DNA of 63,022 nucleotides, counting the filler, from Stramenopiles sp. TOSAG23-6 (lineage: Eukaryota), in NCBI GenBank assembly GCA_900128565.1. It is 6 parts of 6 records of this genome, joined end to end, with 100 filler letters (N's around TTAATTAATTAA, not from the genome) between each part and the next. Parts side by side here need not be neighbours in the genome. Positions count along the whole stretch, not along the records: positions 31,606 to 42,027 come from LT636314.1; 5 more parts are not named here. One strand, 5' to 3'. Positions 37,235 to 39,019 of this stretch are shown piece by piece; the stretch's first letter is position 1; each line of letters opens with the position of its first letter. The translations under genes were made by a program, and so were the position numbers. Below the pieces are notes generated by a model, which searched no databases, was not told where the DNA came from, and saw only the letters and a program-made list of their open reading frames with translations.

Positions 37235-39019
37235 ATGTCGGACAAAGCTGGACACTCTCGCATGGTTGGTAACCCTTTGCAAATGGCAGCACGTCTGAAT
37301 AAAGAAATTGTTGCACTGGGTATCGAAGGCAGTGCGAATAAACTCGGGGTGGGTGTTATACGATATAATACTGATGGAAGCACTGAAATTCTTTCAAACC
37401 CTCGGAAAACATACATAACACCAGCTGGAACGGGTTTCCTTCCAAAAGAAACAGCTTGGCATCATCAGAAACACGTTGTAGCCTTGACACGTTTAGCGAT
37501 TAAAATGTCTGGTCTGGATCAGTCTGCAATAGATATCATATGTTATACCAAAGGCCCTGGAATGGGGAACCCATTGCGTTCATGTGCAATGTGTGCGCGT
37601 ACGCTATCTCAATTATTGGATGTGCCACTGGTTGGTGTGAACCATGTACGGTTTACCTCATTCATTTCAATTTAACTTTTTTTTGGTAGAAAATTTTATA
37701 CTAACAAATATCAAAATGTATACATATTTTTTCACAATAAATTGTGTTGGGCATATTGAAATGGGTCGTGTCGCAACAAACGTTGATGACCCTGTAGTCC
37801 TATACGTTAGTGGAGGAAATACTCAGGTTATATGTTATTCGATGCAACGCTACCGAATGTACGTTTTTATCATCAATTTCAAATTATTTTTTCGTACGAA
37901 ATTTCGTACCTAAGATTTTTTTTCTAGAAATATTTTTCACAGAACATTTTTGGCGAGACAATTGACATCGCAGTAGGAAATATGCTCGATAGATTTGCGC
38001 GTATATTAGGTCTCTCAAATGACCCAAGTCCAGGATATAATGTAGAACAACTAGCAAAAAAAGGTACAAAATTTATACCATTGCCATATGTAGTGAAGGG
38101 AATGGACGTACATTTTCATCATGAATTTTAAATTTATTTTTTTCATAGGAAATTTTGTACCTAATATTTTTTTTTCAATTTCGAATTTATTTTTTCACAA
38201 AACATGTTTCATTCTCTGGTATTTTAACATTTATTGGTCAAGAAGCACGGACTAAGTTGAAAAATGGACAGTGTGCGTTCAATTTAAAATATTGTTCATT
38301 TTTTTAAAATTTAAATTTCAGTTTTTTTTTCATAGAAAATTTTGTACCTAACGATTTTTTAAAACCAAAAAAAAATATTTTTCACAATATGTGCACTCGG
38401 GAAGATTTGTGTTACTCATTACAAGAGACAGTTTTTGCTATGCTTGTAGAAGTCACAGAAAGGGCGATGGCTCATTCCGGTCGAAAAGATGTCCTTATTG
38501 TTGGTGGTGTTGGCTGTAATAAAAGACTACAAGAAATGATGTACATTTTCATCATGAATTTATTAATTTATTATGTTTTTGGTACGAAATTTTGTACCTA
38601 ACAAAATCATGAATTTCAAATTTTTTTTTTTTGGAATTTTTTTTTTGTACCTAACAGTTTTTTTTTTTGGAAAATTTTTACACTTCATGCAAATTATGTG
38701 TAATGAGCGTGGAGGTAAACTCTGTGCTATGGATCATCGATATTGTATAGATAATGGTGCTATGATTGCACAAGCAGGTTTGTGTCAATATAGATGTGGT
38801 GGACCGCAAGCGTTCACTTCTATGGATGATGCGACTTGTACACAACGATTTAGAACAGATGTACGTTTTCATCATGAATTTTAAATATATTTTTTTTGGT
38901 ACGAAAGTTTGTACCTAATGATATTTTTTCGTAAAAAAATATTGTACCTAACGATTTTTTTTTTACGTATTTTCATAGTACATGAAGTTTTGATCCGATG
39001 GCGTAAAAATGTCCCGTAA
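37235..39019 (+). CDS. OSGEP: tRNA N6-threonylcarbamoyltransferase Kae1/OSGEP; 7 exons: 37235-37645, 37743-37858, 37948-38107, 38206-38272, 38393-38540, 38689-38860, 38984-39019
   Basis: [85 protein letters not shown]. Confidence 0.96.
37646..37742 (+). other. Kae1 intron 1, GT-AT
   Basis: CAT|GTACGG..ATACTAAC..CACAATAAAT|TGT; restores NH/CVGH. Confidence 0.92.
37859..37947 (+). other. Kae1 intron 2, GT-AT
   Basis: AT|GTACGT..GTACGAAATTTCGTACCTAAG..CACAGAACAT|T; restores RYRIFGET. Confidence 0.92.
38108..38205 (+). other. Kae1 intron 3, GT-AT
   Basis: GAC|GTACAT..GTACCTAAT..CACAAAACAT|GTT; restores KGMD/VSFSG. Confidence 0.92.
38273..38392 (+). other. Kae1 intron 4, GT-GT (or GT-AT if placed at 38271-38390)
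   Basis: CAGT|GTGCGT..GTACCTAAC..CACAATATGT|GC; restores NGQCTREDLC. Confidence 0.85.
38541..38688 (+). other. Kae1 intron 5, GT-AT, two branch motifs
   Basis: AT|GTACAT..CACTTCAT|G; restores LQEMMQIMC. Confidence 0.9.
38861..38983 (+). other. Kae1 intron 6, GT-AT, two branch motifs
   Basis: GAT|GTACGT..CATAGTACAT|GAA; restores FRTD/EV. Confidence 0.92.

Follow-up and report, generated by a model that had tools for sequence, protein, structure and literature searches.

Introners are said to have been described in Huff et al. 2016 as transposon-derived intron families of marine algae. Families of this kind occur in marine algae and protists, e.g. Micromonas, Aureococcus and Symbiodinium, and surveys point to a wide range of ways in which they recruit splice sites from target duplications (Gozashti et al. 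2022 preprint). These surveys start from annotated introns and distrust unfamiliar 3' splice sites, AG and AC being the ones accepted. Here, we analyzed a 63,022-base stretch of the genome of Stramenopiles sp. TOSAG23-6 (GenBank assembly GCA_900128565.1), referred to below as the window. Its genes contain at least 23 complete copies of one intron family, ~90–150 nucleotides (nt) in length, with the layout AT^GTAYGTTTTCAT ... CGTACGAAATTTTGTACCTAAC ... TTTTTCACAATACAT^G, where carets mark the cut sites. These introns share defined boundaries with a 3' end other than AG, bypass AG dinucleotides that precede the cut, coexist with a GT-AG intron, and in four cases are exactly removed in contigs assembled from RNA.

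Several described systems bear comparison with this family. Introners, the introns of Amoebophrya, those of euglenozoans, and expanded U12-type systems are each close in some respect, and none matches in all. With introners the family shares many near-identical short introns at unrelated gene positions, an element that carries one or both splice signals, candidate direct repeats at the boundaries, by which the message would be restored once the element and one repeat are gone, putative short inverted repeats at the termini, and a marine protist host. However, the introner families described end in AG (GY-AG), whereas the family here ends in AT and sometimes starts with A. The introners of Amoebophrya (Farhat et al. 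2021, PMC7789003) are likewise repeated introns of a marine protist that break the GT-AG rule alongside canonical introns, with inverted repeats that join the intron ends and direct repeats of 3–5 nt across the boundaries. They differ in having no dominant terminal dinucleotide and a splice position that varies relative to the hairpin. In the stramenopile family, by comparison, the borders are uniform (GTAYGT...AT), there is a yeast-like putative branch box, and the helix that can join the ends has only six pairs and is often incomplete.

The nonconventional and intermediate introns of euglenids and diplonemids (PMC12501133, PMC12621601, PMC6221363) also represent a second splicing rule within one genome. 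They are cut at the 3' end not behind AG but at a set spacing from an internal motif, and direct repeats let their junctions slide. Unlike the family here, which has GTAYGT and CTAAC, they are without conserved borders or U1-type 5' sites. U12-type introns of Physarum polycephalum (10.1101/2020.10.12.336362) resemble the family in an extended 5' site whose first base is G or A, in GT-AT and AT-AT borders, in a 3' site that here, too, seems to depend on a motif upstream of it, and in being missed by annotation that admits only GY-AG. In contrast to these, the 5' site here is RTAYGTTTT rather than RTATCCTT, and the nearest branch-type box lies 29–49 nt from the 3' end. Finally, in Fritillaria borealis (10.1101/2025.08.15.670264) a modified U2-type spliceosome, with U2AF paralogues and small nuclear RNA (snRNA) modification, removes non-AG introns. 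That organism, a precedent for a major-type spliceosome retuned to remove introns of this sort, is an animal in which 95% of introns are non-canonical and other dinucleotides are used. In the stramenopile, judging from the window, the change is confined to one element family, which retains GT at its 5' end. In the literature on GT-AT introns, non-canonical introners and introns of MAST (marine stramenopile) lineages, we found no AT-ending or uniform GTAYGT...AT family described; supplementary tables of introner surveys could list one. The passages of PMC5778133 on introns, exons and gene prediction contain nothing on intron type.

To define the family, we aligned 23 introns and found them to be homologous from end to end, with the consensus AT^GTACGTTTT..CGTACGAAATTTTGTACCTAAC..TTTTTTCACAATACAT^G or, more fully, AT^GTACGTTTTnATTTTT..AATTT..TTTTTTTTCGTACGAAATTTTGTACCTAACAAATTTTT..AAAATATTTTTTCACAATACAT^G. 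Hence, these are copies of one repeated element rather than introns with just a common splice signal. The 18-nt motif of the 5' end has 8 matches in the window compared to 0.64 expected, and the motif TTGTACCTAAY has 38 (palindrome duplicates included) compared to 2.5 expected. In each case, the observed number was reached in 0 of 100 shuffles. Since T-rich intron sequence is open in several frames, blind joining of donors and acceptors by open reading frame (ORF) is uninformative, and the set was curated by hand. The 36 matches to the branch-type box that were listed led to 20 complete introns, two of which have two boxes each. One further intron was added through the 5' motif (41200–41083), and two through coordinates given in an initial annotation of the window (those starting at 49224 and 50534). 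Five copies cut by the ends of sequence pieces were left out, as were nine box matches that lie in coding sequence or lack a clear donor.

The 23 copies occupy 23 positions in ten ORF groups, grouped by ORF continuity, and so present what characterizes introners, namely many similar introns at unrelated positions across genes. All 23 junctions yield continuous ORFs once the introns are removed. These include a minus-strand frame of ~750 codons across four introns (60 + 691 codons over the first of the four) and a frame of ~1360 codons at 48–51 kb across three (1220 + 142 codons over the last). At the 5' end of the intron, position +1 is G in 20 copies and A in 3, +2 is invariably T, +3 is A in 20, +4 is C in 15 and T in 8, +5 is G in 20, and +6 is T in 21. 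At the 3' end, –1 is T and –9 is A in every copy, –2 is A in 22 and G in 1, and –4 and –7 are each A in 22. The boundary pairs are GT-AT (19 copies), AT-AT (3) and GT-GT (1), and the number of copies ending in AG is 0 of 23. In 15 of the 23 the upstream exon ends in AT, and in 15 the downstream exon starts with G. A CT(A/G)A(C/T/G) box, the putative branch box, is present 29–49 nt from the 3' end in all 23, with the sequence TACCTAAC in most copies and TATACTAAC in one. The bases between CACA and the cut do not form a pyrimidine tract.

The intron that first drew attention, at 38861–38983 on the plus strand, is the last of six in a gene for Kae1 (tRNA threonylcarbamoyl-transferase). It reads GTACGTTTTCATCATGAA ... 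TACCTAAT ... TACCTAAC ... TTTTCATAGTACAT^, or in another layout GTACGTTTTCATCATGAA ... GGTACGAAAGTTTGTACCTAAT ... TTGTACCTAAC ... TTTTCATAGTACAT^GAAG. Its putative branch site, TACCTAAC, is at 38945–38952 (+), 32 nt from the 3' end, and a second copy of the box, TACCTAAT, is at 38912–38919 (+). The spliced Kae1 model, from which 37646–37742, 37859–37947, 38108–38205, 38273–38392, 38541–38688 and 38861–38983 are removed, is identical to P0121 at 297 of 348 positions with 0 gap columns, and to P0122 at 293 of 343 with two gap columns, both far from the junctions. At the sixth intron, which is placed by homology and ORF alone, splicing at AT gives RFRTD^EVLIRWR, the same as in P0121 and P0122. 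Use of the AG of CATAG at 38977–38978 (+), 5 nt ahead of the intron end, would give ...RFRTDYMKF and a stop codon instead of RFRTDEVLIRWR.

The other five Kae1 introns are all on the plus strand. Intron 1 (37646–37742; GTACGG ... TATACTAAC ... CACAATAAAT^) was placed by alignment to relatives. Intron 2 (37859–37947) is a GT..AT intron with the end CACAGAACAT^, in which the AG at 37941–37942 is bypassed, its use shifting the frame, as is a second AG 20 nt before the end. Intron 3 (38108–38205; GTACAT ... CACAAAACAT^) gives the junction KGMD^VSFSG and follows an exon that ends in AC. Intron 4 (38273–38392) is best read as GTGCGT ... CACAATATGT^, i.e. GT..GT, which joins NGQ^CTRED without gaps to the relatives. 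Given the donor GTGCGT, a cut behind the AT at 38390 would lose the frame; ends at the ATs located 2 and 4 nt upstream would either break the frame or insert an extra residue. Intron 5 (38541–38688; GTACAT ... two TACCTAAC boxes ... TTTTTACACTTCAT^) gives LQEMM^QIMC. Standard gene prediction misses this choice of splice sites. The public model of this gene, P0130 (387 amino acids; 37235–39019, +), reads through or mis-splices family introns and contains peptides translated from them, e.g. ...TDVRFHHEF, indicating that the family was unrecognized when the model was built. Two of the Kae1 introns (38541–38688 and 38861–38983) have two TACCTAAY boxes, spaced by 53 and 33 nt, which gives the impression of an internal duplication of the element's middle part.

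Public sequencing runs allowed us to compare these boundaries with RNA. Of the window's sampled words, 91% are found in two small DNA runs, both from a single sample of 2015, and 10–18% in seawater metagenomes and polyA seawater metatranscriptomes. Four RNA runs (X6, X7, X9 and X10; X6, X9 and X10 are polyA RNA-Seq) were placed as assembled contigs on positions 31606–42027, and 15 of 40 joints were listed. Among these are joints that exactly remove four family introns of a minus-strand gene, in contigs of X6, X9 and X10. Joint 41082>41201 (X6, X10) skips 118 nt, the intron at 41083–41200, which reads AT..AC on the plus strand and thus GT..AT on the gene strand. Joint 41296>41385 (X6, X9, X10) skips 88 nt, with a slide of 3, and corresponds to the GTTCGT..ACAT intron at 41298–41385. 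Joint 41469>41623 (X6, X9, X10) skips 153 nt, with a slide of 4, and fits the AT..AT intron at 41470–41622 (ATACGTTTTCATC ... TTTTTCACATGAAAT^), which starts with A and ends in AT 5 nt past an unused family-type CACAT. Joint 41716>41846 (X6, X9) skips 129 nt, with a slide of 1. It fits only GT..AT, with 41718–41846 out and 41717 joined to 41847, or the equivalent TA..TG reading. This intron has the end CACAGTACAT^ and a bypassed AG at 41724–41723; use of the AG at 41723 would have removed 124 nt, not the 129 observed.

An artefact would be conceivable if the contigs stemmed from intron-less alleles or from DNA in the RNA libraries, or if the boundaries had been misplaced and a canonical reading existed. 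Contigs from metatranscriptomes may include DNA, and most of the junctions can slide by 1–4 nt. We nevertheless consider an artefact very improbable. The libraries concerned are polyA RNA-Seq, and single contigs are without two or three consecutive introns (X10 record 6, X9 record 29). One contig of 431 nt holds three consecutive exons, which speaks for spliced messages, not intron-less alleles. Joint 41716>41846 admits no GT-AG reading, 23 of 23 junctions restore long ORFs, and the Kae1 model is gap-free at its junctions. An AT-AC reading, obtained by sliding the boundaries by 2 nt, was also tried; it fits the intron at 38861 and fails at 38108 (exon ends in AC), 37646 (which would be AT-AA) and 41846.

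The same RNA data bear on the abundance of the family. One metatranscriptome alone placed 1281 contigs on the 10.4 kb, and summed depth was in the thousands over intron parts, compared to <20 in most exon-only bins (up to ~85 in one). Other copies leave loose ends at 34765–34768, diverging exactly at the intron 3' end (34767/34768). Both observations fit a family of very many copies. Over family sequence at 33694–34041, 34390–35085 and 37870–38565, depth is hundreds to thousands of times that of neighboring exons. This excess could reflect many genomic copies present as unspliced RNA, stable excised introns, carry-over of DNA, or the same element in relatives. Cross-joins between different intron copies (e.g. 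34764>38137) were set aside as repeat artefacts, and no weight is given to parts of the stretch that lack cover. A scan of public metagenome contigs with a 17-nt family core returned 64 loci, none of them in family context; all were chance matches in unrelated contigs.

The initial annotation had claimed that AGs between the branch point and an AT acceptor are bypassed in these introns, and this observation is confirmed. Four introns have a YAG exactly 5 nt before the AT end: CATAG-TACAT^ (38983), CACAG-AACAT^ (37947), CACAG-TACAT^ (41718, minus strand) and CACAG-TATAT^ (43778). Others have an AG further upstream, 32 nt before the end in the intron at 34667–34767 (+), 34 nt in that at 30608–30507 (–; ORF-supported), 26 nt, as CAG, in that at 49224–49369 (+; ORF-supported), and 9 nt in that at 50534–50628 (+). 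In the segment that runs from the A of the final CT(A/G)A(C/T/G) box up to the intron end, at least one AG is present in 9 of the 23 introns, for 10 AGs in total, and spacings other than the four of 5 nt and the one of 9 nt are 20–34 nt. Shuffles of the same segments contain 15.4 ± 3.1 AGs, and 4.5% of them have 10 or fewer; GT and TG are depleted alike, and the copies are not independent. AG is therefore at most mildly depleted after the box, and there is no AG-free zone.

Reading frames show which of the alternatives is used. In all four introns with a 5-nt spacing, the AG alternative breaks the frame; this includes both Kae1 sites, 37942 and 38978, where spliced models were compared with P0121 and P0122. 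For the GT..AT intron at 43675–43778 (+; end CACAGTATAT^, bypassed AG at 43772–43773), the ORF across the junction is 167/167 codons with AT versus 20/169 with AG. At 41718, the RNA contigs splice at AT and not at AG. The AT..AT intron at 50534–50628 (ATATGT ... TTGTAGACAATATAT^) is a different case, as its AG at 50618–50619 is in frame. Here the AT junction, HGG^GKRC, recreates the protein's own repeat HGGG(K/R)RC, and the AG is probably bypassed as well. ATs are passed over too: GAAATATTTTT stands ahead of most ends, and CACAT is skipped in 41622–41470.

AG acceptors are in use in the same genome. The intron at 19213–19364 (+), GTAAGT...CCATGAAAG^ with AAAG at its end, lacks the family motifs and lies in a gene for proteasome alpha-5, as identified from named protein matches (P0001 onwards; not aligned). 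Only AG joins QIMSR in this protein, and a cut at CCAT, five bases upstream, would shift the frame. The segment MSRPFGV is conserved among proteasome alpha-5 orthologues. A search for further canonical introns across the 63 kb left this one as the only convincing case, against 23 of the family, with 18533–18641 and 43127–43173 as candidates. As had been proposed, the AT acceptor is thus not chosen for want of an AG. AGs are bypassed in the family introns and used elsewhere in the genome, which implies that something in the family introns marks the site positively. Bypass of AG is one consequence of a larger feature, the intron family itself.

What marks the site? The initial annotation had proposed a CACAA/CCAAA-TACAT motif, and part of this stands. 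In every CACA-type copy the cut falls 6 nt after CACA and 9 nt after the invariant A. The rule looks positional, however, more than tied to AT itself. Two copies that depart from ATACAT keep the spacing, namely 41622–41470, which ends CACATGAAAT^ (TGAAAT; RNA-supported), and 38273–38392, which ends CACAATATGT^ (ATATGT; homology-supported). This makes it more likely that the acceptor is defined by its location in the conserved 3' module than by scanning for a particular dinucleotide.

A 3' site set by position is also what would be expected if these introns were a transformed and expanded U12-type class, with the cut measured from a branch point near the 3' end (the A at –9, or at –7 in UUUUUCACA) and a lax terminal dinucleotide. 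Upstream AGs would then be ignored as lying before the real branch point, or too near it. In keeping with this idea, +1 is G in 20 copies and A in 3 within the same extended motif, and the boundary pairs (GT-AT 19, AT-AT 3, GT-GT 1) are those reported for Physarum U12-type introns (10.1101/2020.10.12.336362). The constant spacing between CACA and the cut, kept in both informative copies, fits as well, as does the lack of a pyrimidine tract between them. In our own comparison, TACCTAAC is one base from both the U2-type TACTAAC and the U12-type TCCTTAAC. In Physarum the branch motif is 9–12 nt from the 3' site, with U12 snRNA changed accordingly, and the U12-type branch motif is given as TTCCTT[G/A]AC (10.1101/2020.10.12.336362). 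That motif is absent from the introns of the window, where the best CTAAC-type box is 29–49 nt from the 3' end, as is usual for U2-type introns. Likewise, the 5' site (RTAYGTTTT, with G at +5 in 20/23 and T at +6 in 21/23) is of U1/U6 type, not RTATCCTT. A search of the 63-kb window against Rfam gave 0 matches. Measured by the features that define each class, the family has the GT and U1/U6-type 5' extension of U2-type introns and lacks their AG 3' end (0/23); it has the G or A at +1 and the non-AG 3' ends of U12-type introns and lacks their 5' [G/A]TATCCTT. On balance, we regard a U12 origin as unlikely. G at +5, T at +6 and a CTAAC box belong to the yeast-type consensus and look like strong signals of the major type.

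Alternatively, the acceptor might be selected by pairing between the intron ends, AU^GUAY with RUACAU^, such that the last two bases of the exon pair with the last two of the intron. The helix would bring the cut sites to within two pairs of each other and hide an AG at –7/–6, and removal could be spliceosomal or euglenid-like. The consensus ends are indeed reverse-complementary (ATGTAY/RTACAT), and the helix is predicted with a probability of 0.82–0.99 in three of the four introns with AG at –7/–6 (37859, 38861 and 41846). The G(–6):C(+4) pair is predicted to be strong in 38861 and 41846, at 0.27 in 37859. Moreover, four transitions at paired positions of Kae1 intron 4 all yield G-U wobbles, for which we calculate a chance of 1 in 16. 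There are precedents: in Euglena pairing is required, the 3' cut being 5–6 nt past the paired motif (PMC12501133), and Amoebophrya introners have inverted repeats of 8–20 nt together with the 3–5-nt direct repeats across their boundaries (PMC7789003).

Pairing, which the initial annotation had also suggested, is not supported as a requirement. All six pairs can form in 7 of the 23 introns, and helix probability is at least 0.5 in 7 of 23. The RNA-supported introns 41622–41470, with 3/6 pairs, and 41385–41298, with 4/6, are cut at the expected place. The helix consists of six AU-rich pairs that would close a loop of ~100 nt. Covariation between +4 and –6 was checked as well: G(–6) occurs only with C(+4), in 4/4 cases, and the link is not significant (p ~0.15 by hand). 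The same symmetry is expected of a transposon terminal inverted repeat (GTAT../..ATAC) combined with a palindromic 2-bp AT duplication, with no role in the RNA. We consider selection of the acceptor by pairing quite unlikely. The family also falls outside what defines euglenozoan nonconventional introns, given its conserved borders, a helix that is complete in 7/23, and splicing of an intron with 3/6 pairs. The host points the same way in terms of affinity: Kae1 is nearest to oomycete, ochrophyte and MAST-named sequences (one MAST-named gene model), not to euglenozoan ones, and proteasome alpha-5 is likewise nearest to stramenopile rather than euglenozoan sequences.

The explanation toward which we lean, with modest confidence, is an introner-like and probably transposon-derived intron family with a 3' cut at a set position, probably removed by the spliceosome. 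In this scheme, one homologous family of ~90–150 nt would have invaded the genes of the window. Each copy carries its own signals: at the 5' end a strong splice site of yeast-like form (GUAYGU, or GUAYGUUUUCAU in its extended version), a branch-type CUAAC box (UACCUAAC) beside a small internal palindrome, runs of T, and a fixed 3' module, UUUUUCACAAUACAU. The copies are cut precisely from RNA, and a spliceosome is the most likely agent. The 3' cut would be made not via the first AG but at the set position, 6 nt after CACA and 9 after the invariant A, normally behind AU, and AGs between the CUAAC box and the cut are ignored, even a CAG that precedes it by 5 nt. The AU at the intron end is probably a copy of the AU at the end of the exon before it, as a 2-bp target duplication or through target preference, and loss of the element plus one copy of AU would restore the reading frame. 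The dinucleotide at the exon end equals that at the intron end in 16 of 23 copies (AT/AT in 15; GT/GT in one, Kae1 intron 4), and the termini ATGTAY/RTACAT are palindromic.

A number of points weigh against this explanation. Removal by a spliceosome is suggested by motifs alone, and the position rule, as a mechanism, would rest on two informative copies, one of them placed by homology alone. As AT is nearly constant, target duplication, target preference and splice signal are inseparable; the introner literature makes the same point on duplication versus preference (Gozashti et al. 2022 preprint). The copies are young relatives of each other, so that a conserved base is no proof of function, and the set of 23 was curated by eye. 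On the RNA side, all support is from contigs assembled for three samples of a single study, and contigs are unable to measure or exclude a minor AG isoform. In X7, from a second study, none of the four joints is among the joints listed (15 of 40). A search for a same-species Kae1 transcript fragment across 38861–38983 gave 151 matches, the best 73% identical and none from this species.

A broader proposition strikes us as evenly balanced between right and wrong: that a heterotrophic marine stramenopile has, beside GT-AG, a second splicing code borne by an element, with very many introner copies, an AU end measured from a motif, A tolerated at +1 and a CAG 5 nt upstream ignored, operated by a retuned major or a co-opted minor spliceosome. 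The choice of 3' splice site, and how strictly AG is needed, is a central rule of gene expression. The family looks like a natural experiment on this rule in many copies, each combining a strong 5' site, a branch-type box and a non-AG 3' site, some with AGs between, and with GT-AG introns alongside. With it one can test whether position can define a 3' site, by what route transposon-derived introns are made harmless if no AG is supplied by the target duplication, and whether introns of the minor type can spread as mobile elements. If the proposition is true and the minor spliceosome is used, these would be the first introners to make U12-like introns. If it is true, current gene models of such genomes would be widely corrupted. 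Going by the public Kae1 model P0130, protein catalogues of uncultured marine protists made with predictors that admit only GT-AG may be systematically wrong wherever such families exist.

The remaining copies are supported by ORFs. On the plus strand, these are the introns at 244–331 (its palindromic duplicate uncounted), 4794–4892 (starting ATACGT, with A at +1, and ending ACAT^; ORF of 192/108 codons), 13331–13424 (ORF of 490/647 codons), 21310–21404, 33720–33809 (GTATGT ... CCAAAATACAT^), 43933–44025, 44184–44307 and 48285–48423 (GTTTGT ... CCAAATATACAT^). Additional TACCTAAC cores flanked by family-like sequence are found away from long ORFs, at 35554 (–), 62340 (–), 62578 (+) and 878/955 (–), those at 62340 and 62578 being close together on opposite strands (62.3–62.6 kb). 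They could be introns of untranslated regions or non-genic copies of the element.

The window consists of six pieces of ~10.4 kb, with GC contents of 28–43%, separated by spacers of the form N44-TTAATTAATTAA-N44 (10443–10542, 20979–21078, 31506–31605, 42028–42127 and 52544–52643). Because the pieces are joined by spacers, gene neighborhood across them is meaningless, and several family introns (5 copies) are cut off at piece ends. The first piece is a perfect inverted duplication, in which 701–5128 is the reverse complement of 5129–9556 at 100% identity (center ~5128), and the intron copies of its second half were for this reason left uncounted. The turn-around sits in a small palindrome, CATACGAAATTTCGTATG, of a family intron. 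The duplication looks like an amplification or assembly chimera that arose at the intron hairpin rather than biology.

Elsewhere, a long GC-richer stretch at 25000–29700 codes on its minus strand for highly repetitive, nucleoporin-like FG/GFG-type repeats, which yield spurious matches to the motif TACCAAAT. Short telomere-like runs of TTAGGGTTAGGG and CCCTAACCC occur in or beside coding sequence at ~1139–1310 (mirrored at 8950–9120), 21590–21610 (–), 54243 (+) and 58133 (–). One of these runs, at ~1200–1300, is a tandem array of the 33-nt unit GGGTTAGTAGGGTTAGGCGAATCTGTTGTTTCA.

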